A program made the translations under genes and the position numbers. Of a stretch of DNA of 64,000 nucleotides, positions 7,226 through 56,831 are shown piece after piece. Under the pieces are notes generated by a model. It searched no databases, was not told the origin of the DNA, and worked only from the letters and a program-made list of their open reading frames with translations. The stretch comes from Enterobacteria phage vB_EcoM_IME540: sequence record MT150133.1. The stretch is one strand, 5' to 3'. How positions within the stretch are numbered: position 1 is the first letter of the stretch; every line of letters starts with the position of its first letter.

Positions 7226-7713
7226 TAGTAAAGGTCCTCAGAGTAAAGTTCTTTTTCACTACCACCACGTTCAATACGTACTTGTCCGGCGTAAGTTGCA
7301 ATAATCATTGCTTCTTCACGGGTCCAATAGTTTGAATATTGGTCAATAAAGCCTTGGTCATCACCACAAACATGGTCTGATACAAGTTTATCACTTACCT
7401 GGTCAAGAACTTCAGCCATATCTTTAGAATAATGACGAGCGCCAGGAATAACCAGAGTCCCACCATCTTTTAACTTAAAGCGGTTGGCTGCACACACAAT
7501 TCGACGTTGATATTTTTCATTATTGTTCCAATAGGCAATCTGCCAACAGATTTCAGGAACCTCTTCTAAAACATCCTCTTCCGTATATTTGGTGTAGTCG
7601 CCATAGGCCTGTAATTTAGCTGCTAGACTTTCGGGCGTCTCACGAGAAAGAGCTTTATCTAATAAGGCCATTCGGTCTTTAAAGGATAATTCTTTACCTT
7701 TTAATGGATTCAT
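7225..7713 (-). CDS. hypothetical protein
   Basis: Track ORF begins at TTG; likely ATG start MNPLKGK at 7713 overlapping upstream stop (ATGA). Confidence 0.65.
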
Positions 7714-8039
7714 TTGAACCAACCTTTAACACGTTGCCACAGACTTTTCTGTTGAGCTTTATTAACACCAATTGAACGAATGACAGGTTGTGATTCCTGG
7801 TATTCTTTATAGTCTGCTTTATAAACTTCGTAAGCTGCGTCAACAAAGGAAGAAATAGCTGCCATATAATTTTTACGAATACCGAGTGGTGCTTTTCCAT
7901 CGTCACGATGAATAAAGTATGAACCGGCTTTAATCTTCACAATACTTCCGAGATAAGCACCATGATACCAAATGTCCCAACCTTCTTGAGTAGGTTCTGC
8001 ACAACGACGAAGTTCATTAACAATATTCAGCTTGTTCAT
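7710..8039 (-). CDS. hypothetical protein
   Basis: 109 aa; SD GAGGAAATT before ATG; co-directional in motA-asiA early cluster. Confidence 0.65.
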
Positions 8040-8720: not shown

Positions 8721-8749
8721 ATAGTATCATGTTTAAAGCAGAAGTAAAC
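8721..8749 (-). promoter_or_regulatory. early promoter (-35 GTTTAC, TGa-extended -10 TACTAT)
   Basis: Minus strand GTTTAC-TTCTGCTTTAAACATGA-TACTAT, then conserved leader AGACCTATCAA, 38 nt upstream of motA ATG. Confidence 0.6.
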
Positions 8750-8767: not shown

Positions 8768-8788
8768 AAAAAAGAACCCGAAGGTTCC
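8768..8788 (-). terminator. intrinsic terminator (GGAACC-TTCG-GGTTC hairpin plus TTTTTT)
   Basis: GC stem with TTCG loop and T-run on minus strand right after the micro-ORF that follows gene 52. Confidence 0.6.
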
Positions 8789-8893
8789 TTACTTTTTAAA
8801 GTGGGCCGCTATTAAACCTATAGCTAAGCCTGTCGCCAGGCCTAGAATAACAGCAAAGATACAGAGTAACAAGAACTCGACTCCAAGGCTCAT
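8789..8893 (-). CDS. small hydrophobic peptide (34 aa), translationally coupled to gp52
   Basis: ATG overlaps gp52 TGA stop (ATGA); sequence MSLGVEFLLLCIFAVILGLATGLAIGLIAAHFKK is a single predicted transmembrane helix; sub-threshold ORF. Confidence 0.45.
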   Translation of the reverse strand: MSLGVEFLLLCIFAVILGLATGLAIGLIAAHFKK

Positions 8894-10218
8894 AGAGCCT
8901 CCAAATCTTTAACATACTCAGTTACCACATCAGTGGTTTTCCAGTATTGATGCTCTTCTTTCTTAGCCTTGGCTTCGAGGGCCAGTTTCTTGGCTTCATC
9001 GGATGTGATATGGAAAATGTTCATGGCCACTAGTTTATCGGCATATTCGCCATAGACTTTATTACCAGCCAATTCCTCAGTTAAAACCTTACGGGTCTTA
9101 CCTTGGATAACTACAGTCCCATCAATAACATCTTTGATAAATGTAGCTTTAGCCAATGCTAGTTTAAAAGCTTCTTCGGTTTCGATGATTTTACCATCAA
9201 TACGTTTTTGTACAAAGGTCTTACGGACCTCAACGAAATCACGAATCAGTTCAACTGCATCTTCGTAAACCTTAAGCTTACCTTTTTCATTAATGACGGT
9301 CAGGTTTTGTGAACGACGTTCGATTAACCCGAAGTCCTTCATGAGTTTTTCGTGTTTCTTATCTTCATCAGTAGGCAATTCGTATTCTTTACGAATCTTA
9401 ACCTTGAAGCCAAAACCGTTCTCATCACAGTCATCATCATATGTGATATACCCTTTGTCTTCCAGAGGGTCTAATATCTTAGCCACATATGTTTCACGGT
9501 CATATTTGTACGGGATTTCCGTGATATGCATTTGGGTTCGGGATGTGAACTTATACGTTCCACGAATCTCATAACTACCAGGTTCAATCTCAACAACATC
9601 ACCGCGGAATTCAGGATAAGCCACTTTGGGTTTGGTTACTCGTTTTTCCTGAAGAATTTGCAGTACAGCTTTCTTAACAGAATCAAAACTATGAGGAAGA
9701 ATATTAGTTGCATAACCAGTTGCAATACCGGAAACGCCATTAAGAAGAACAGTAGGAATAATAGGCAGATAAAAAGCCGGTGGCTTATGTTCAACATCCG
9801 CATGAACCGGAGCATATTCTGTGTCCTTATAAACTTTTGCAAAGTTACTTCCAATACGAGCAAAAATATAACGAGAGGCTGCAGCTTTTTGAACCAATCG
9901 GGAACCAAAGTTACCTTGACCGTCTAACAATGGATAGTTGTTGTTCCATGTGTTAGCCATCAAAGCCCCTGCTTCCTGAGCAGAACCTTCACCGTGGTGA
10001 TATCCGAGGTCGGCTACACCACCAGCGATAGAAGCCAGTTTGTGGAATTTTTCTTTATTACCACGAGCCATATCAAGACAACGAGCCACTACAAAACGTT
10101 GTACAGGTTTAAAGCCATCAATCATATTTGGAATGGCTCGGTTTTCGACAGTATACATTGCATAAGCCAATGCTTCGTTGTCGATAATACTTTTTAAACC
10201 ACGAGATGTTAATTCCAT
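8890..10218 (-). CDS. 52: DNA topoisomerase II medium subunit gp52 (GyrA-like)
   Basis: 442 aa; near-identical over long stretches to recalled T4 gp52 (LKSIIDNEALAYAMYTVENRAIPNMIDGFKPVQRF, GNFGSR.VQKAAASRYIFAR). Confidence 0.97.
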   Translation of the reverse strand: MELTSRGLKSIIDNEALAYAMYTVENRAIPNMIDGFKPVQRFVVARCLDMARGNKEKFHKLASIAGGVADLGYHHGEGSAQEAGALMANTWNNNYPLLDGQGNFGSRLVQKAAASRYIFARIGSNFAKVYKDTEYAPVHADVEHKPPAFYLPIIPTVLLNGVSGIATGYATNILPHSFDSVKKAVLQILQEKRVTKPKVAYPEFRGDVVEIEPGSYEIRGTYKFTSRTQMHITEIPYKYDRETYVAKILDPLEDKGYITYDDDCDENGFGFKVKIRKEYELPTDEDKKHEKLMKDFGLIERRSQNLTVINEKGKLKVYEDAVELIRDFVEVRKTFVQKRIDGKIIETEEAFKLALAKATFIKDVIDGTVVIQGKTRKVLTEELAGNKVYGEYADKLVAMNIFHITSDEAKKLALEAKAKKEEHQYWKTTDVVTEYVKDLEAL

Positions 10219-10222
10219 AATT

Positions 10223-10363
10223 TTACCATACTAGTGAATGAATAGCCATAATAACATCGGAAATAAAAAGCACAACTTGGATAAGTCCGAACATTACTCC
10301 GTAATACAGCGCTACTAATAAAGCAGCAAGGGCTAACGAGTAGCCCAGGATTTTATTAATCAT
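10223..10363 (-). CDS. small membrane protein (46 aa)
   Basis: Track ORF starts at TTG; internal ATG gives MINKILGYSLALAALLVALYYGVMFGLIQVVLFISDVIMAIHSLVW, strongly hydrophobic; occupies the T4 ac/stp-like slot between 52 and ndd. Confidence 0.5.
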   Translation of the reverse strand: MINKILGYSLALAALLVALYYGVMFGLIQVVLFISDVIMAIHSLVW

Positions 10364-10517
10364 TTTTAATCGTCTTAAGTAAACCGACAAAAGTAGAAAG
10401 AACCCAACCAATAAGCAGAAAACTTAAGAATATCGGACCAGGGGTCCACACACCTAAAAAGAAGCAAACCGAACAGACTATAGCCGTAATAAGTTCAATA
10501 AAAACTACGATAATCAT
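10356..10517 (-). CDS. small membrane protein (53 aa)
   Basis: Sub-threshold ORF MIIVVFIELITAIVCSVCFFLGVWTPGPIFLSFLLIGWVLSTFVGLLKTIKND with SD GAGGAAAAT; stop overlaps next start (ATGATTAA); a GCGTC-TTCG-GACGC hairpin lies just upstream of its SD. Confidence 0.45.
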   Translation of the reverse strand: MIIVVFIELITAIVCSVCFFLGVWTPGPIFLSFLLIGWVLSTFVGLLKTIKND

Positions 10518-10604
10518 ATTTTCCTCATTAGCGTCCGAAGACGCCTTTAGTTTTAAGATTGTTACGATAGAACTGCATCACATGTTCGTTATGGAAATTA
10601 CTCA

Positions 10605-11054
10605 TTAGTAAGCCTGAAGGATGAATTTAAAGTTATCAGCCAACATACGGTTCATTTCTTCCAGTGTCTGGAGGTCGGAACTATGATTGCGAGTGAAAGC
10701 CATTGCAATTTGACCCTTACCAAAACCAGTAGTCAGAGGTTTCATCTTAGAAGCCGGTACATAAAGAACTTCATACACAACACCGTTCACTGCCATAGTG
10801 CGAGCTGATTGAGAACGTTTCTTACGAATGTTAGCCACGATACCATCGAGACCTTGAGCAGAACGTTGATTACCGACATAAAAACGAGCAGCTACGACAC
10901 GAGAATCAGCACCACCTTTAACAAAGAAGTAGAAGCCTGGTTGAGCAGAGATTTCTTTAGAAGGTTTACCATTTTGGTATTCACCGTTCTTAACATAAGC
11001 AACAGTAGTAGCACCAGCAGACAGAACGTTACGGCGAGTCATATAAGTATTCAT
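10605..11054 (-). CDS. ndd: nucleoid disruption protein Ndd
   Basis: 149 aa; matches recalled T4 Ndd ([52 protein letters not shown]); SD GAGGAAATT. Confidence 0.9.
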
Positions 11055-11709: not shown

Positions 11710-11820
11710 TCAGAAGTTAAAGAATACACGTACATGGTCAATCATAAAAACGATTGGGAAAATGCTCAATACCATTAACAACACAAACATGTTCCAAATT
11801 GCTTTAAGTAAGTTTTTCAT
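11710..11820 (-). CDS. small hydrophobic peptide (36 aa)
   Basis: Sub-threshold ORF MKNLLKAIWNMFVLLMVLSIFPIVFMIDHVRVFFNF directly downstream of an early promoter; SD GGAGA; its stop TGA forms part of the next gene's SD. Confidence 0.4.
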   Translation of the reverse strand: MKNLLKAIWNMFVLLMVLSIFPIVFMIDHVRVFFNF

Positions 11821-11846: not shown

Positions 11847-11875
11847 ATAATATCATGATTAATGGAGATGTATAC
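11847..11875 (-). promoter_or_regulatory. early promoter-like element (-35 GTATAC, -10 TATTAT with TGa)
   Basis: Same module and leader (AGACCTATCAACTAATGGAG) as other early promoters; spacer ATCTCCATTA is complementary to leader TAATGGAGAT. Confidence 0.5.
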
Positions 11876-11965
11876 TGATTTATGCCAATTTCCACAACAA
11901 TAAACTAAAACATACGCAAATCACTGGGATACAGGCCATCCAAATAAGGCACCACATTTTGCTAC

Positions 11966-12232
11966 TCAAAACACCACCTCTTTTATCTCAATTAATCCCC
12001 TGTGCAATGCAGTACGAAGGTCATAAAGAATATCTATGCCGTCAACATTATCCAGTTTTCCATCAATAAGCTTTTCTAAATCTTCCTTGGATGCGATTAA
12101 GGGGCGGAGAAATTTACATTCAGAAAGAGATAACTCTGTAGTAACATCATCACCTTCACCTGATGCATCATACATAGCGGCAACAACCATACCTGTAACT
12201 TTGTGTTTAGCGTAATATAATTTGATATCCAT
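11966..12232 (-). CDS. hypothetical protein (88 aa)
   Basis: Track ORF begins at GTG inside the promoter; ATG MDIKLYYAK follows SD GAGGAG in conserved leader. Confidence 0.6.
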   Translation of the reverse strand: MDIKLYYAKHKVTGMVVAAMYDASGEGDDVTTELSLSECKFLRPLIASKEDLEKLIDGKLDNVDGIDILYDLRTALHRGLIEIKEVVF

Positions 12233-37863: not shown

Positions 37864-38219
37864 GGATGATATGCCTTATAGGTTTCAAGAGTTCCTTCAC
37901 GAACCATTTCTTTAAAGTGGTCAGGACGGATTGCTCGGTCATCGATGATAAAAGTATAACTCGGCTTATGTGTAAGCAGATTGTGATATTTCAATCCAAT
38001 CTTTTCAAGGTTCTTAACTAATGCAGGAACTACTTCAACCAAGATTCGACCTGGGCCGCATGAAGTCATACCACGGGCAGTGAACAAGGTAATCTCGTAC
38101 CCTTCATCATAAAGCTTATTAATCACGGACACCATTTCGGTGTCCGGTTTAAAGTTTTCGTAATCACGGTCATCTTGCCAGTGAGTAATGGTATTATCGA
38201 TATCAAAACACAGATGCAT
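37860..38219 (-). CDS. HAD-superfamily phosphatase
   Basis: 119 aa; HAD motif I FDIDNTIT near N-terminus; ATG overlaps upstream stop (TAATG). Confidence 0.65.
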   Translation of the reverse strand: MHLCFDIDNTITHWQDDRDYENFKPDTEMVSVINKLYDEGYEITLFTARGMTSCGPGRILVEVVPALVKNLEKIGLKYHNLLTHKPSYTFIIDDRAIRPDHFKEMVREGTLETYKAYHP

Positions 38220-39892
38220 TAAATTTTCTTCCATTGTTTGTGGAGTTCGGTAGAACCTGTAGGTTTATATTTTACACCAGTTTCCTGGTCAAGCAAAACC
38301 CACTTATCAGGACAACGAGTGATAATTTGAGCCGTGATAGGGTCGCGAACTTCATCAACGAATTCACCTGTGATAAGCTTACGCTTACGAGGATGCCGCT
38401 TCAGCAGCACACTCAGTTGATATAGCCCATTGTAATAAGCGCCCAGAGCTTTCAGAGGGTTATTTTTAAAGTAACCTGCCAATGCCATCCAGATAACAGC
38501 AATCCAGAGCTTGTGCTTAAATGTACACATCGGAATATCATCTAAAGGCATAACCTTTTCAATATCAACGAATACACGAGTTCCGTTACGAGTTAAGCCA
38601 CCCCATAGAGGGTCAGAGTTAAATTTGTCATAACCATCGATAGAATAAAGCACCTTAGCTTCATCATAAATCGCAGGGCCTTTAGAACTATTACCAAAAT
38701 AACCACGTGGGTCGATGATTTTAATATTACCTTCGTCCGACAACATAATATTACTGTAGTGCGGGTCGCCATGAATAAGTTGGTACGGTTCTTTATGTTC
38801 AGACAGAATTTCTAAGGCGTGACGAAGAAGTTTTTCTGGGTCGCCTACCTTGAAGTCGTTAACATGGGTAATACCCTGTGGAGCAAAGCCTTCAATCAAT
38901 CCGGCAATAGAAGCATTACGAATAAGGACCTTGTCCAATACTTCTTTCTTAACATCAGAATACCATTGCTCATCGGATGGATTATCGATAGTTCCACCGA
39001 ATGAACGTAATGCACTAATGACCTTATAAACCATGAGGACTTTAGTTTCTTTAGACATAAACCGATAGGCGTCTGCCATGGTGCGACCAAAGATACGTTC
39101 CATTTTAATGAATTCACCTGGAGCAAAGTCTACAATGCTAGGAACGAATTCAGAATCAATAGAATTGTACCAATTGATTTCTTTAGATTGGATTTCTTTA
39201 CCTAATTCGTTTGTAGGTACTTTAATAGCTAGATTCTCAGTGAACTCTAATTTATTAAATTCACGGTTAATTTCAGAATCTTCATGGGCCTTAGCCAGTT
39301 TCAGTTTGTCACCAACATCAACTACAAAGTCTAACTTACGTTCAGTCAAATGGACCATTGAATCCAGGTTGTCAGCAAGGTCTTCACCATAATTAGAACG
39401 GTCGAAACCTGTCCAATTAGCCACCTGATACAAGCCAACTACGCCACCACCGGTACCAATTTCACGCAAGTACGGTTCTTCAAATGTAAAACGACAGTCA
39501 GTCCCATAGGTATAACAGTAGTCGTTATCCCACTCAACTTTATGACCTTCAGGAATAATATCACACCAGTTAAACAAGACATTGTGCCCAATGATATCTT
39601 CGGCAATGCAATCGATAGCATGAGCCGAACCATTGGCAACATCAACGTTACGAATAGTGAATTTAGGCTTATCACTATTAATCATGTTAATGGATTTAAT
39701 ATAGCCTTTAACGAGGTCGTTAAATTTGCTGTGAATAACCAGAATAATTTCATCTGATTGATTACTATACAAATCATACAAATGTTTTAATACAGTATGT
39801 TGTTTGTAGTTAACCAGTACCTTCGGGATTTCGTTGGTAATTGGATACAACCGTGAGCCAAGACCCGCGCCTAAAATAACAACCTTTTTCAT
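38219..39892 (-). CDS. bifunctional protein: N-terminal sugar-phosphate nucleotidyltransferase, C-terminal APH/choline-kinase-like kinase
   Basis: N-terminus VVILGAGLGSRLYPITNEIPKVLV fits the G-x-G-x-R-x-P...PK signature; C-terminus LIHGDPHYSNIML ... IKIIDPRG fits a protein-kinase-like fold; start at ATG MKKVVIL after SD GAGGAA. Confidence 0.7.
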   Translation of the reverse strand: MKKVVILGAGLGSRLYPITNEIPKVLVNYKQHTVLKHLYDLYSNQSDEIILVIHSKFNDLVKGYIKSINMINSDKPKFTIRNVDVANGSAHAIDCIAEDIIGHNVLFNWCDIIPEGHKVEWDNDYCYTYGTDCRFTFEEPYLREIGTGGGVVGLYQVANWTGFDRSNYGEDLADNLDSMVHLTERKLDFVVDVGDKLKLAKAHEDSEINREFNKLEFTENLAIKVPTNELGKEIQSKEINWYNSIDSEFVPSIVDFAPGEFIKMERIFGRTMADAYRFMSKETKVLMVYKVISALRSFGGTIDNPSDEQWYSDVKKEVLDKVLIRNASIAGLIEGFAPQGITHVNDFKVGDPEKLLRHALEILSEHKEPYQLIHGDPHYSNIMLSDEGNIKIIDPRGYFGNSSKGPAIYDEAKVLYSIDGYDKFNSDPLWGGLTRNGTRVFVDIEKVMPLDDIPMCTFKHKLWIAVIWMALAGYFKNNPLKALGAYYNGLYQLSVLLKRHPRKRKLITGEFVDEVRDPITAQIITRCPDKWVLLDQETGVKYKPTGSTELHKQWKKI

Positions 39893-39952
39893 TATCTGTT
39901 CCTCAAGTGAATGTAGGTACATTATACACTATTTTTAATAAATTGGTATTGC

Positions 39953-40453
39953 TTAAATCTTATCTTTACCGATTTCAATACACTGTTCTATTGCCGCCGG
40001 TGCTTTGGTCTTGAGCTTATCGATTTGTTTCTTATAATCACGAGCTTTACCGAAGCTCTCGGTTTCGAGCATTTCGTAATAACGAGCCTCGTGGATGGAA
40101 ATCTGTAGATTGATATGGTTTACGCACATCGCATACAGTTTCTGCTTTTTGTACAAATCATCTTGACGCTTCATTTCTGCCTGGTGTTTGGCTAGTACCG
40201 CTTCACGCTTGGACTCTTGTTCACGTTGGAATTCGATTTCTTGTTGAGCATATTTTGCACAGTTATTACCGCATTGATTATTAGCTCGGGTGTACACAAG
40301 TCCAGAACCTGCACGGAATTTCATTTCGCCATCGAATTGTTTCTGTTCAGCTGCGATACGAGCTTTACCAACTTCATCGGCCGAAACTGTATCACCATAT
40401 TGGACCGCGCAACCTGATAGGAGCATACTCATTGCGATAATTAACTTTTTCAT
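39953..40453 (-). CDS. predicted lipoprotein (166 aa), coiled-coil rich
   Basis: Signal MKKLIIAMSMLLSGC with lipobox LLSGC; lies two genes downstream of imm; SD GAGGA. Confidence 0.65.
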   Translation of the reverse strand: MKKLIIAMSMLLSGCAVQYGDTVSADEVGKARIAAEQKQFDGEMKFRAGSGLVYTRANNQCGNNCAKYAQQEIEFQREQESKREAVLAKHQAEMKRQDDLYKKQKLYAMCVNHINLQISIHEARYYEMLETESFGKARDYKKQIDKLKTKAPAAIEQCIEIGKDKI

Positions 40454-40460
40454 AATATCC

Positions 40461-40598
40461 TCAATTAAAACAGTTATACTTAATTTGTGCTATAAGAATA
40501 ATCCATCCAATGATGAGTGTCGGAATCATTGGGGGAATTGCCACTGCCCAATAAATGGTAAAGGCAGTCATTATAAGAAATAAAATAATTATTTTCAT
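40461..40598 (-). CDS. small hydrophobic peptide (45 aa), translationally coupled to imm
   Basis: ATG overlaps imm TGA stop (ATGA); MKIIILFLIMTAFTIYWAVAIPPMIPTLIIGWIILIAQIKYNCFN; its stop sits within the lipoprotein SD. Confidence 0.45.
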   Translation of the reverse strand: MKIIILFLIMTAFTIYWAVAIPPMIPTLIIGWIILIAQIKYNCFN

Positions 40599-40831
40599 TG
40601 CTTAACAATAATGATTTGTGCGTTTGATTTACGTTCAGCGACGATAGCCCAGATTAAAGCCACTACCCAACCAATCATCGTCCAGCCTAACAGGAGATTA
40701 AGGAAGAAAATTCCGACATTACTACGAGTGCCTCGCAGAAGAGCCAGAATCCATGGTAAAAAGTAACCGATGAACATAATAACCAGAGAACCGAATCCTA
40801 AAACACCAGCACTAACGATTAAAGCTTCCAT
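40595..40831 (-). CDS. imm: superinfection immunity protein Imm-like membrane protein
   Basis: 78 aa, two predicted TM helices, motif LLGWTMIGWVVALIWA; located between 42 cluster and 43 as T4 imm; call rests on motif memory and position. Confidence 0.65.
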   Translation of the reverse strand: MEALIVSAGVLGFGSLVIMFIGYFLPWILALLRGTRSNVGIFFLNLLLGWTMIGWVVALIWAIVAERKSNAQIIIVKQ

Positions 40832-40861: not shown

Positions 40862-40891
40862 ATACTACCACGTTCCTTGTGGTATGTAAAC
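40862..40891 (-). promoter_or_regulatory. early promoter (-35 GTTTAC, 18 nt, -10 TAGTAT)
   Basis: Overlaps the 3' end of gene 43; leader CCTTCCTATCAACTACATGAGGAAATT. Confidence 0.55.
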
Positions 40892-56179: not shown

Positions 56180-56488
56180 TTAACGGTCACACCACCAACT
56201 ACTTACTTCAAAATCAGGTTCACCGTGTTCCCAGTACCAAGGGCCGACTGGATGCCAATCACCGTGTTCATCTTCTTCAAATTCTTCAGATTCAAGCCCA
56301 ACGTATTGCCATTGGACTTCATAAGCAGTACCACCGATTACAACGGTGTTCTCGCCATATGGATGGGCTACAACAAAGTCAATACCTTCTGCTTTGGCTA
56401 ACCAAACCATATATTCGTATAGTTTATATTCCAGGTCATCTTCGGTGCCATCACCTAGAAAAATGGTTTGTTCGTTTAATTCAATCAT
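56180..56488 (-). CDS. hypothetical acidic protein (102 aa)
   Basis: ATGA overlap with upstream ORF; Trp- and acid-rich. Confidence 0.55.
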   Translation of the reverse strand: MIELNEQTIFLGDGTEDDLEYKLYEYMVWLAKAEGIDFVVAHPYGENTVVIGGTAYEVQWQYVGLESEEFEEDEHGDWHPVGPWYWEHGEPDFEVSSWWCDR

Positions 56489-56673
56489 AACTCCACCATA
56501 AATTCAAATAGCTGGCCATGTACACAGGTATCAGTCCAACCCCATTCGTTGGCTTCTTCTTTTAACCAATCCGGGAGATTTGCCAATACGGTTTCTTTAC
56601 TAGGCGCAGGAGTATTAAACTCACTTGCAAACTCTCTTGCGCAGGTTTCATAAGCTGTATCAAATTCGGTCAT
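56485..56673 (-). CDS. hypothetical protein (62 aa)
   Basis: ATG overlaps stop of upstream micro-ORF (ATGA). Confidence 0.55.
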   Translation of the reverse strand: MTEFDTAYETCAREFASEFNTPAPSKETVLANLPDWLKEEANEWGWTDTCVHGQLFEFMVEL

Positions 56674-56831
56674 TTAAAGTTCCAGAATGAAGCACCAACC
56701 AGAAATAAAGGCCAACAAATCATAGACGTCAGCCACCAACAAAAATCACCGGAATCATCTAATTTAGCTAGGGTCTTAGCATAACCAATACCGATGATAA
56801 GATACAAAACAACCAACATTAATTCAATCAT
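56670..56831 (-). CDS. small membrane peptide (53 aa), translationally coupled to nrdC
   Basis: ATG overlaps nrdC TGA stop; MIELMLVVLYLIIGIGYAKTLAKLDDSGDFCWWLTSMICWPLFLVGASFWNFK with two hydrophobic segments; sub-threshold ORF. Confidence 0.45.
   Translation of the reverse strand: MIELMLVVLYLIIGIGYAKTLAKLDDSGDFCWWLTSMICWPLFLVGASFWNFK

Follow-up and report, generated by a model that had tools for sequence, protein, structure and literature searches.

The gene 52 locus of T4-type phages raises the question of whether the very small hydrophobic reading frames on both sides of the gene are genuine genes, and whether they form a class with similar frames elsewhere in the genome. Such phages have dozens of very short early genes whose functions are unknown. 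We analyzed a stretch of 64,000 nucleotides, here called the window, from Enterobacteria phage vB_EcoM_IME540 (MT150133.1), a Dhakavirus and T4 relative of the JS98/Bp7/QL01 kind. An earlier note had listed six hydrophobic micro-ORFs and suggested that they represent one recurring class of small membrane effectors. On the evidence of the sequence, these are genuine, conserved genes for small hydrophobic, membrane-type peptides. Nearly all of the families are already catalogued (T4 52.1, ndd.4, ndd.6 and others), and the novelty is low.

All six were found exactly where the earlier note had placed them, on the minus strand, and the SD or the stop/start overlap that it had claimed for each is present in all of them. 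The maximum 19-residue Kyte-Doolittle hydropathy is 2.0-2.8 in six of six. Uncharged stretches cover 15-39 residues, have K/R at their flanks and are compatible with one or two helices. Membrane character and topology were judged by hydropathy alone, and by this measure the peptides have the span-length hydrophobic segment and flanking charges of generic small inner-membrane proteins. Each micro-ORF is annotated in some relative and assigned to a PHROG. A tblastn search with the 34-aa peptide gave no matches, since the BLAST low-complexity filter masks it, and relatives were instead gathered by synteny-based extraction (92 IMG/VR loci) and DNA searches.

The region around the end of gene 52 contains the following features.

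8890..10218, minus strand: gene 52, topoisomerase II medium subunit, with micro-ORFs on both sides
8789..8893, minus strand: post-gene-52 micro-ORF, 34 aa, predicted single TM helix, C-terminal KK, phrog_16377
8866..8925, minus strand: RNA hairpin over the gene 52 stop and the micro-ORF start, pairing the GGAGG SD and the G of AUG
8771..8790, minus strand: terminator-like stem-loop from the post-52 ORF stop codon, 8-bp stem and T run
8749..8744 (-35 GTTTAC) and 8726..8721 (-10 TACTAT), minus strand: early-type motA promoter after the stem-loop, as read from the sequence

The post-52 ORF starts in an ATGA overlap with the gene 52 stop, with GGAGG 6 nt upstream, and matches phrog_16377 with E = 2e-21. 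Both Dhakavirus and the VR5/VR25-type lineage have conserved it (54 phage records), with a pN/pS of 0.34, and its frame is the sole one open in nine of nine sequences. A frameshift fusion of gp52 with the downstream peptide was rejected, there being no slippery motif at GCTCTATGAGCC. The ORF is absent from the annotation of several Dhakavirus records.

The hairpin over the junction has a predicted energy of -20 kcal/mol (z = -3.8; none of 200 shuffles folds equally well) and is kept in eight of nine relatives, where only one-sided changes and no compensatory pairs were observed; the arms are also coding. It is absent at T4- and Karamvirus-type junctions, and the imm and nrdC junctions gave no significant RNA structure. 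The hairpin thus offers a plausible physical basis for translational coupling at gene 52, which is suggestive only.

Most lineages have a stop-overlapping hydrophobic ORF after gene 52, but the families differ. At least three unrelated hydrophobic families were identified in this slot (phrog_16377, phrog_3487 and phrog_13762), together with shorter unclassified ones, and several lineages lack any ORF after gene 52 (L015, L052, L025/26/28 and L038-42). One speculative and unlikely idea is that position and not sequence is conserved at gene 52, which has the highly constrained 52.1 at its start. The selected trait would then be a membrane peptide made in fixed ratio with the topoisomerase subunit, for example to anchor the topoisomerase or the replisome to the inner membrane, and the peptides in the stop-overlapping slot would have been captured or born de novo. 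If so, the post-52 slot would be a place where new membrane micro-genes naturally originate.

On the other side of gene 52, the interval up to ndd contains three ORFs.

10223..10363, minus strand: ortholog of T4 52.1, 46 aa, DUF7396 (PF24129), phrog_3595
10356..10517, minus strand: 53-aa ORF, predicted two helices, GVWxPGP loop, phrog_9347, GAGGA SD
10528..10605, minus strand: stp, 25 aa, hydrophilic and not a membrane peptide; host PrrC activator in T4

The earlier note had two micro-ORFs filling this interval, and both are there, but stp was overlooked. The 52.1 ortholog matches PF24129 over residues 1-46 of 46 (78 bits, cut-off 27) and phrog_3595 with E = 1e-25. Its stop at 10223 lies 4 nt ahead of the gene 52 ATG (10218), as in T4 and 28 loci, and it overlaps the upstream ORF by 8 nt (ATGATTAA). 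It shares 44 of 46 residues with T4, while 12 codons differ by synonymous changes only; gp52 is about 81% identical. With a pN/pS of 0.44 and 729 phage records, it is nearly universal directly upstream of gene 52 where gp52 identity is at least 66%.

The 53-aa ORF matches phrog_9347 only (E = 2e-26), with a pN/pS of 0.56 and 79 records. It occupies the position of T4 Ac, but this identification was ruled out (phrog_9347 vs phrog_2501, hhalign probability 0.2%). The shared ...ND* end arises because the last codons of both overlap the 52.1 start ATGATTAA, and in JS98 the phrog_9347 and Ac families are adjacent in one genome. Furthermore, no Ac homolog was detected within the window by phmmer with T4 Ac and the JS98 Ac-like ORF. 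T4 Ac is the one neighbor-type protein for which experiments exist. Loss of Ac yields acriflavine-resistant phage, a phenotype known for T4/T2 Ac only, and T4 Ac expressed alone sensitizes E. coli to acriflavine and ampicillin; a 2025 preprint proposes that it acts on AcrAB-TolC. Since the 53-aa ORF is unrelated to Ac and the window has no Ac homolog, the acriflavine phenotype is not implied, and we caution against naming this ORF “Ac.” The prediction is that this phage, in the absence of an Ac homolog, should be acriflavine-resistant, unless phrog_9347 substitutes for Ac.

Two further hydrophobic ORFs are located in the ndd region.

11710..11820, minus strand: ortholog of T4 ndd.4, 36 aa, predicted single TM helix, N-terminal lysines, phrog_3098, GGAG SD
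11847..11874, minus strand: promoter-like site TATACA-16-TATTAT, TG-extended, between the ndd.6-like and ndd.4-like ORFs
11880..11969, minus strand: seventh hydrophobic micro-ORF, 29 aa, ortholog of T4 ndd.6, phrog_8851, TTG start, GAGGTG SD

The ndd.4-like ORF matches phrog_3098 with E = 5e-21, aligns with T4 ndd.4 and is annotated in relatives as ndd.4 (KIT01, QL01) or inner membrane protein; its pN/pS is 0.37 (17 distinct sequences). The frame is likewise open from 11832, which would give 40 aa, and the phrog_3098 profile starts at residue 5 of this longer form. The early promoter that it was said to follow has a counterpart in the promoter-like site at 11874..11847, just upstream. The ndd.6-like ORF matches phrog_8851 (E = 3e-12) and T4 ndd.6 (phmmer, 3e-5), and in its relatives the corresponding codon is likewise the start and reads ATG or TTG; the earlier list, which missed it, was thus not complete. 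No counterparts of T4 ndd.2, ndd.2a/3 and ndd.5 were found within the window.

The two remaining micro-ORFs follow imm and nrdC.

40595..40831, minus strand: imm, superinfection immunity, PF14373, with a promoter-like site at 40890..40862
40461..40598, minus strand: post-imm micro-ORF, 45 aa, phrog_3610, ATGA overlap with imm
56670..56831, minus strand: post-nrdC micro-ORF, 53 aa, predicted two helices and charged loop, phrog_6756
56819..56831 and 56476..56488, minus strand: two copies of a 13-nt junction repeat, ATGATTGAATTAA, which start the micro-ORF and a 102-aa ORF

The post-imm ORF shares a transcript with imm, to which it is coupled, and the GAGGA of the next gene overlaps its stop. It matches phrog_3610 with E = 1e-21 (pN/pS 0.46), and an alignment with T4 and three other lineages gave the conserved motif P(P/H)MIPTLI..W...Q.(K/R)Y.CFN. 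The family was recovered from 159 records and is annotated in some only. T4 contains an unannotated homolog of 49 aa that overlaps the imm stop by ATGA (NC_000866, 26227..26376), and the ORF is annotated neither in the two T4 records examined nor in QL01. RB69ORF054c belongs to the same family but is not adjacent to imm in RB69, and phrog_3610 is therefore not an obligate partner of Imm. PF14373 matches imm only, and no micro-ORF matches it or any defined functional family.

The post-nrdC ORF, annotated as QL01_81, overlaps nrdC by ATGA, and again the next ORF downstream. It matches phrog_6756 with E = 8e-30 and has a pN/pS of 0.16 (81 records), and orthologs differ by a 2-codon indel in the loop.

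The suggestion of a single recurring class was not borne out. The peptides fall into six families (phrog_16377, 52.1/DUF7396, phrog_9347, ndd.4, phrog_3610 and phrog_6756), with the ndd.6-like ORF as a seventh, and no relationship was detectable among these six or seven (different PHROGs; hhalign probabilities below 1%). Pfam and NCBIfam matches to Renin_r, Glycophorin_A, Peptidase_S26, DUF5504, LacI-type bacteriocin immunity and Bac51 were far under the cut-off and compositional.

Evidence that the frames are coding comes from comparisons with relatives. The annotated frame is the only one open in all orthologs, the other frames carrying stops, and in all families it has the lowest pN/pS (0.16-0.56 vs 0.7-1.9 in the others, the mirrored antisense frame excepted), although the values of 0.4-0.6 in some families are only moderately low and p-distances are saturated. 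Indels among orthologs are multiples of three. Furthermore, TM-like products are encoded by 8 of 26 small ATG ORFs in coding-strand gaps between large genes, whereas for those embedded in other frames or strands the figure is 15 of 235 (Fisher p = 6e-4). The micro-ORFs are conserved across hundreds of genomes and several genera. The comparison across related phages that the earlier note had recommended thus showed every ORF to be conserved, with purifying selection.

Translational coupling to conserved genes had also been emphasized. The close coupling is real, but it is not special to the micro-ORFs: 34 of 108 gene junctions in the window overlap, 17 of them by ATGA, and stop/start coupling is the default gene organization of the early region.

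Unrelated families are found at the same site both after gene 52 and in the interval between stp and 52.1, and profile-profile tests revealed no link between families sharing one slot. Loss in a close relative with the flanking genes kept, which the earlier note had named as evidence against its reading, is literally seen in vB_EcoM_005 for the post-imm and post-nrdC ORFs, but as precise cassette deletions that join the neighbors and not as frame decay; 52.1 also seems lost there, but since that junction is unaligned and gp52 looks truncated, the evidence for loss is confined to the two clean junctions. These losses argue for dispensability rather than non-coding status. On the nrdC side, the deletion runs exactly between the copies of ATGATTGAATTAA, which occurs twice in comparison to 0.02 expected occurrences. 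Modular shuffling mediated by PeSLs (promoter-early stem-loops) has been described in T4-type phages, and one published case of cassette exchange concerns the ndd.4/.5 region (PMC2839356, PMC4122927).

Information about expression comes from T4, where motA.1, 52.1, ac, stp and ndd.2-6 belong to the transcript class “early”; in the window, promoter-like sites precede the ndd.4-like ORF and imm. A proteome study by LC-MS/MS did not detect T4 52.1, motA.1, ac and ndd.2-6, which is expected for tiny hydrophobic peptides but is still a negative result, and a literature search found no ribosome-profiling data for T4-type phages. In CRISPRi-ART experiments, T4 motA.1, 52.1, ac and ndd.1-6 were “Not Fit” and gene 52 was “Fit,” and the authors report no polar effects. 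Since no laboratory fitness effect was seen, an effector function is something that we infer.

Taken together, we consider it probable that the seven ORFs are separate, genuine early genes, that is, dispensable accessory cassettes from unrelated families whose products reside in the inner membrane and modulate host envelope functions. According to this hypothesis, the genes would be transcribed soon after infection on polycistronic early mRNAs from sigma-70-type early promoters and translated by the same stop/start coupling as most genes nearby, to which the RBS-sequestering hairpin may add in the case of the post-52 ORF. The products, of 29-53 residues with one or two hydrophobic helices, would insert into the host inner membrane. 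Each peptide might then work in trans, attaching to one of the machines of the host envelope and modulating it (efflux, transport, DNA entry, cell-wall or defense-sensor systems), with a conditional benefit, by analogy with the proposed block of AcrAB-TolC by Ac and the block of superinfecting DNA by Imm. Acquisition, loss and replacement of the cassettes would take place at fixed sites, namely behind gene 52, in the interval from ndd to 52, behind imm and behind nrdC, by recombination that uses either short repeats at the junctions or stem-loop/promoter elements. The roles in the host membrane, exclusion or lysis timing that the earlier note mentioned are guesses.

One alternative is that the peptides damage the membrane, depolarizing or permeabilizing it for host shut-off or lysis timing in the manner of type-I toxins, holins or antiholins. 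Their size, hydrophobicity and charged termini resemble those of small pore-forming or depolarizing peptides, the expression of T4 Ac raises drug sensitivity, and expression of certain early T4-type proteins on their own is toxic. We nevertheless find this unlikely, since the genes are early and early depolarization would hurt an energy-dependent infection, and since the phage has other, known genes for the holin (t) and for lysis inhibition. Furthermore, only 6 of 45 early proteins tested from Mosigvirus AV110, a set that may or may not have included the present families, were growth-inhibitory, and among those of the six that are discussed there is no micro-peptide.

Another possibility is that the ORFs act only in cis, as translated spacers that keep ribosomes on the early mRNA and pass them to the next gene, thereby preventing Rho-dependent polarity or RNase attack, the peptide itself being irrelevant. 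This would agree with the overlaps or very short spacers at both ends, the RBS-sequestering hairpin at the gene 52 junction, the unrelated sequences in one slot and the dispensability in the laboratory. However, purifying selection acts at the amino-acid level in every family, and 52.1 has retained 44 of 46 residues between genera despite the 12 synonymous changes. Blocking the RBS of T4 52.1 or motA.1 was neutral although gene 52 itself is “Fit,” with no polar effects reported; relatives without a cassette simply join the neighboring genes, and the post-52 ORF feeds no downstream gene, being followed by the terminator. We therefore think it distinctly improbable that these ORFs serve as spacers only.

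We also considered the possibility that 52.1 and the post-52 peptide are made in fixed ratio with gp52 and serve to tether or control the phage topoisomerase, or else the replication complex, at the inner membrane. The near-universal position of 52.1 directly upstream of gene 52, its higher conservation than that of gp52 and the stop-overlapping hydrophobic ORF after gene 52 in most lineages would all be in line with such a role. There are also old reports of membrane-associated T4 DNA-delay proteins. However, knock-down of T4 52.1 or motA.1 was neutral whereas gene 52 is required, several lineages have no post-52 ORF, and similar peptides also follow imm and nrdC, all of which makes a tether very unlikely. 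Finally, that these are chance ORFs mistaken for genes, hydrophobic owing to T-rich sequence, as might be imagined for a genome of 39% G+C in which 6-7% of random embedded small ORFs are TM-like too and annotation varies between records, is almost certainly wrong, being already contradicted by the open frames with the lowest pN/pS, the indels in threes, the 52.1-T4 codon data, the conservation over hundreds of genomes and several genera, and the four-fold TM-like enrichment in coding-strand gaps.

We therefore favor the hypothesis of dispensable membrane cassettes. About one-third of the conserved genes of at most 65 aa in the window encode membrane peptides, and such genes are systematically under-annotated and invisible to standard proteomics. 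Should every one of the peptides act on a host envelope machine, in the way now proposed for Ac and AcrAB-TolC, the set would offer natural inhibitors of efflux, transport, DNA uptake or defense sensors in compact form. The practical value is modest and consists of annotation fixes for the seventh ORF, stp and the T4 ORF between 42 and imm, of the caution about the name “Ac” and of the acriflavine prediction.

Among the closest known systems is T4 gp52.1 (UniProt P18922), which agrees with its ortholog in the window in length (46 aa), in position and in the overlap of 8 nt with the ORF upstream, and nothing material differs. T4 MotA.1 (49 aa, phrog_3487) shares with the post-52 ORF the slot, the ATGA at the gene 52 stop, the hydrophobic character and the motA promoter region that follows, but the sequences are unrelated (phrog_16377 vs phrog_3487, hhalign probability 0.5%, which rules out an identification as motA.1), and the window ORF is shorter, at 34 aa, with an RBS hairpin that is missing in T4. 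Likewise, T4 Ac (51 aa, phrog_2501) resembles the 53-aa ORF in its slot between stp and 52.1, similar size, two-helix layout and overlap with the 52.1 start. The orthologs of Ndd.4 and Ndd.6 are both located in the same ndd-denB hyperplastic region as in T4, with the difference that the Ndd.6 version in the window begins with TTG. The stem-loop at 8771..8790 and the early promoter after the post-52 ORF resemble the layout of a PeSL (PMC4122927) and thus the elements of PeSL-mediated shuffling, whereas the nrdC-side deletion used a direct repeat of 13-19 nt that consists of the stop/start overlap plus codons 1-4 (MIEL). At a more general level, the micro-ORF products are similar to T4 Imm and other envelope-acting early proteins in being small, early, probably inner-membrane and non-essential. 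In bacteria, E. coli AcrZ is a small membrane regulator of 49 aa that binds AcrB. The phage peptides are comparable to regulators of the AcrZ type in their size, their one or two helices and the proposed binding of a large membrane complex, as the preprint proposes for Ac.

The six hydrophobic micro-ORFs are real, conserved coding genes, and the best-supported reading is that each would be an independent accessory gene encoding a small inner-membrane protein, membrane insertion being judged from hydropathy. The 3.3-kb stretch around them is 96-98% identical to the Dhakavirus phages LQ5, QL01, Bp7, WG01 and KIT01, and gene order is as in T4 (asiA-...-motA-52-...-ndd-...-denB-rIIB, then rIIA onward). 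All six were found where the earlier note had placed them, on the minus strand, which here carries all early genes:

8789..8893, minus strand, post-52 ORF (directly after gene 52), 34 aa; ATGA overlap with the gene 52 stop, GGAGG upstream; phrog_16377
10223..10363, minus strand, 52.1 orthologue, 46 aa; 8-nt overlap ATGATTAA with the upstream ORF; phrog_3595
10356..10517, minus strand, 53-aa ORF; GAGGA SD; phrog_9347
10528..10605, minus strand, stp, 25 aa, hydrophilic; in the 52-ndd interval, between ndd and the 53-aa ORF
11710..11820, minus strand, orthologue of T4 ndd.4, 36 aa; GGAG SD; phrog_3098
11874..11847, minus strand, TG-extended promoter-like site just upstream of the ndd.4-like ORF
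11880..11969, minus strand, ndd.6 orthologue, a seventh hydrophobic ORF; TTG start, strong GAGGTG SD; phrog_8851
40461..40598, minus strand, post-imm ORF, 45 aa; ATGA overlap with imm; phrog_3610
40890..40862, minus strand, promoter-like site upstream of imm
56670..56831, minus strand, post-nrdC ORF, 53 aa; ATGA overlaps with nrdC and the next downstream ORF; phrog_6756

The description of one- or two-helix peptides agrees with hydropathy, the 19-residue maximum reaching 2.0-2.8 in all six, and the uncharged runs of 15-39 residues edged by K/R/D/E fit a predicted single helix or helical hairpin. The 52.1 orthologue, whose stop lies 4 nt ahead of the gene 52 ATG, matches Pfam DUF7396 (78 bits vs a cut-off of 27). 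The ndd.4-like ORF does follow a promoter-like site, as had been claimed of an early promoter there; a 40-aa form from 11832 is likewise open, and the family profile starts at the 36-aa start. The earlier list left out the seventh ORF, orthologues of which begin at the identical codon (ATG or TTG) and which is unannotated in QL01 and KIT01, and its account of the 52-ndd interval, correct for two ORFs, overlooked stp. Each of the six has an SD or an overlap with the upstream stop, but such coupling is no distinguishing mark of micro-ORFs, because overlap is the rule among the 108 same-strand junctions (17 ATGA overlaps, 34 overlaps in total, 23 further junctions within 15 nt).

The micro-ORFs are coding and constrained at the amino-acid level. 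TM-like ORFs make up 8 of the 26 small ATG ORFs in coding-strand gaps between large genes, compared with 15 of 235 embedded in other frames or strands (Fisher p = 6e-4). Syntenic ORFs were extracted from 92 loci around gp52, nrdC and imm in viral contigs. In every family the annotated frame was the sole one of six open in all distinct sequences, and it had the lowest pN/pS (post-52 0.34, 52.1 0.44, 53-aa ORF 0.56, ndd.4-like 0.37, post-imm 0.46, post-nrdC 0.16; other frames 0.7-1.9, the mirrored antisense frame excepted), which bears out the conservation that the earlier note had proposed as a check. Lengths vary among orthologues by whole codons. Window and T4 52.1 differ at 2 of 46 residues and synonymously at 12 codons, with gp52 at about 81% identity to T4-type loci; it is therefore the protein that is constrained and not the RNA. 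The phage collection holds 729 records for 52.1, 159 for post-imm, 81 for post-nrdC, 79 for phrog_9347 and 54 for post-52; the 749 for the ndd.4/ndd.6 region include matches to the shared promoter region.

T4 carries a member of the post-imm family, a hydrophobic 49-aa ORF (NC_000866 26227..26376, minus strand; locus L005) whose ATG overlaps the imm stop (ATGA) and which ends just ahead of gene 42. It fills the "42-imm intercistronic region" and has homologues in window 40461..40598 and RB69 ORF054c, the latter noted as "similar to T4 42-imm intercistronic region". The ORF lacks annotation in T4 NC_000866.4, T4 MT984581.1 and QL01 and is annotated in Bp7 and others. ORF054c is not adjacent to imm; the family is therefore not an obligate Imm partner. 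In place of T4 gene 42, the window has two genes at 38219..40453 (minus strand), downstream of the post-imm ORF. One encodes a predicted lipoprotein of 166 aa (MKKLIIAMSMLLSGC...), the other a protein of 567 aa whose N-terminal region resembles nucleotidyltransferases and whose C-terminal region resembles kinases. The corresponding position in RB69 is occupied by sugar-nucleotide genes, and the two window genes may be linked to DNA sugar modification.

The earlier note would have counted loss in close relatives, with the flanking genes kept, as evidence against its reading. Such loss occurs in vB_EcoM_005 for both the post-imm ORF, which is precisely absent, and the post-nrdC ORF, deleted between copies of TTCAAATGATTGAATTAA; these are clean deletions and the coding status stands. 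A 13-nt core repeat is involved on the nrdC side:

56476..56488 and 56819..56831, minus strand, 13-nt repeat ATGATTGAATTAA, start codon plus MIEL

There are exactly two copies in the window (0.02 expected), beginning two different genes 343 nt apart. These genes are adjacent in QL01 and separated by an extra 62-aa ORF in the window, and the interval between the repeats is missing from vB_EcoM_005, which suggests that gene-start repeats serve as recombination joints.

Published experiments cover T4 orthologues or slot-mates only, a slot being a fixed position between conserved genes where differing families sit. Time-resolved omics placed T4 motA.1, 52.1, ac, stp and ndd.2-ndd.6 in the transcript class "early"; their proteins went undetected (class NA; PMC9697503, Table S2). 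CRISPRi-ART scored motA.1, 52.1, ac, stp and ndd.1-ndd.6 "Not Fit" and gene 52 "Fit", polar effects being absent by the authors' report (PMC11879866). E. coli expressing Ac alone becomes more sensitive to acriflavine and ampicillin; a block of AcrAB-TolC by Ac is the authors' proposal (bioRxiv 10.1101/2025.06.30.662393), restated as an assumption in a 2026 PNAS paper. Our literature search found no ribosome-profiling study of T4-type infection. A passage of that preprint, citing Miller et al., notes that predicted membrane proteins cluster in T4, so the recurrence is already described there. Each micro-ORF falls in a separate existing PHROG; the genes are already annotated or catalogued, hence known, and the hydrophobic peptides are neither new nor the single class that the earlier note proposed. 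The earlier note's interpretation holds in part. Our small additions are the seventh ORF, the post-imm ORF that lacks annotation in T4, the repeat at the junctions of the nrdC-side deletion, the distinction of phrog_9347 from Ac, and the pattern of slot replacement at gene 52.

We favor the hypothesis that the accessory genes would be expressed early via ordinary coupling and exchanged as cassettes, each peptide probably acting in trans on a host envelope component, with a benefit probably confined to particular hosts or conditions. That the peptides tether gp52 is an idea suggested by the bracketing of gene 52 with micro-ORFs and weakened because knock-downs are neutral and some lineages lack a post-52 ORF. 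A role as toxin or holin, or in the timing of lysis, is conceivable and found no support. A purely cis role as "translated spacer" is contradicted by amino-acid constraint, by the neutrality of RBS knock-downs beside a required gene and by clean natural deletions. Chance ORFs are excluded.

The window Stp is T4 Stp minus the final Q and otherwise identical; the T4 peptide is an activator of PrrC, an anticodon nuclease of the host. In JS98-type relatives a diverged stp (…QWHRHNLKLTGVFGRP) lies elsewhere in the interval. A 57-aa two-helix family, phrog_5941 (…FERLCK.CG..K), follows ndd in L010, L011, L012-14, L020, L029-31, L036 and other relatives and is missing from the window, where stp adjoins ndd instead. 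T4 ndd.3 and ndd.2a (locus L004, 166432..166628) look like one membrane ORF of 65 aa that a 1-nt deletion at codon 3 has broken in two, to judge from ATGAA-CGT in the T4 reference vs ATGAAGCGT in L016/L017; the ORF is unbroken in close T4 relatives, and ndd.3 is a PHROGs singleton. At 7710..8039 (minus strand), adjoining motA, there is a 109-aa ORF of the arn.4 family (>1000 phage records). Its size, its position and the distribution reported make it the probable homologue of Gp94 ("Emp") of Mosigvirus AV110, a protein recently described as inhibiting MreBCD-dependent cell-wall synthesis.

Loci with gp52 show, in the slot after gene 52, three or more unrelated hydrophobic families and some very short ones, all overlapping the gene 52 stop; several lineages have nothing there. 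One to four membrane micro-ORFs from a few families are always present in the ndd-52 interval, where 52.1 is nearly constant. Karamvirus-type loci (L012-L014, L047) have two consecutive hydrophobic micro-ORFs after gene 52, a 49-aa motA.1-like ORF and a 25-26-aa ORF (MMTFYGLFVGMIFFLWIIYLVIEYFF), with a 4-nt overlap. A hairpin at the gene 52/post-52 junction pairs the SD and the G of AUG (-20 kcal/mol, z = -3.8); kept in 8 of 9 relatives, inside coding sequence and free of compensatory changes, and absent at T4-type junctions, it is plausible as a putative coupling device. A further element closes the post-52 ORF:

8790..8771, minus strand, terminator-like stem-loop at the end of the post-52 ORF

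Sequence reading as an early promoter for motA follows (GTTTAC-17-TACTAT), and together they match the PeSL arrangement, through which cassettes, ndd.4/.5 among them, are reported to be exchanged (PMC4122927).

The window shares the T4 architecture motA.1-52-52.1-ac-stp-ndd, with two slots filled by other families. Homologues of Ac, motA.1, ndd.2, ndd.5 and "family D" are found nowhere in the window, and JS98 has both an Ac-like and a phrog_9347 ORF. Ac and the 53-aa ORF both end in "ND" because each overlaps the 52.1 start (AAT GAT TAA over ATG ATT AA). Profile-profile comparison of slot-sharing families gave a probability <1% for every pair tested, and we rejected the 53-aa ORF as Ac and the post-52 ORF as motA.1 on this ground and on their different PHROGs. 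The ac slot holds Ac (phrog_2501) in T4 and the unrelated phrog_9347 in the window, and the slot after gene 52 holds motA.1 (phrog_3487) in T4 and the unrelated phrog_16377 in the window.
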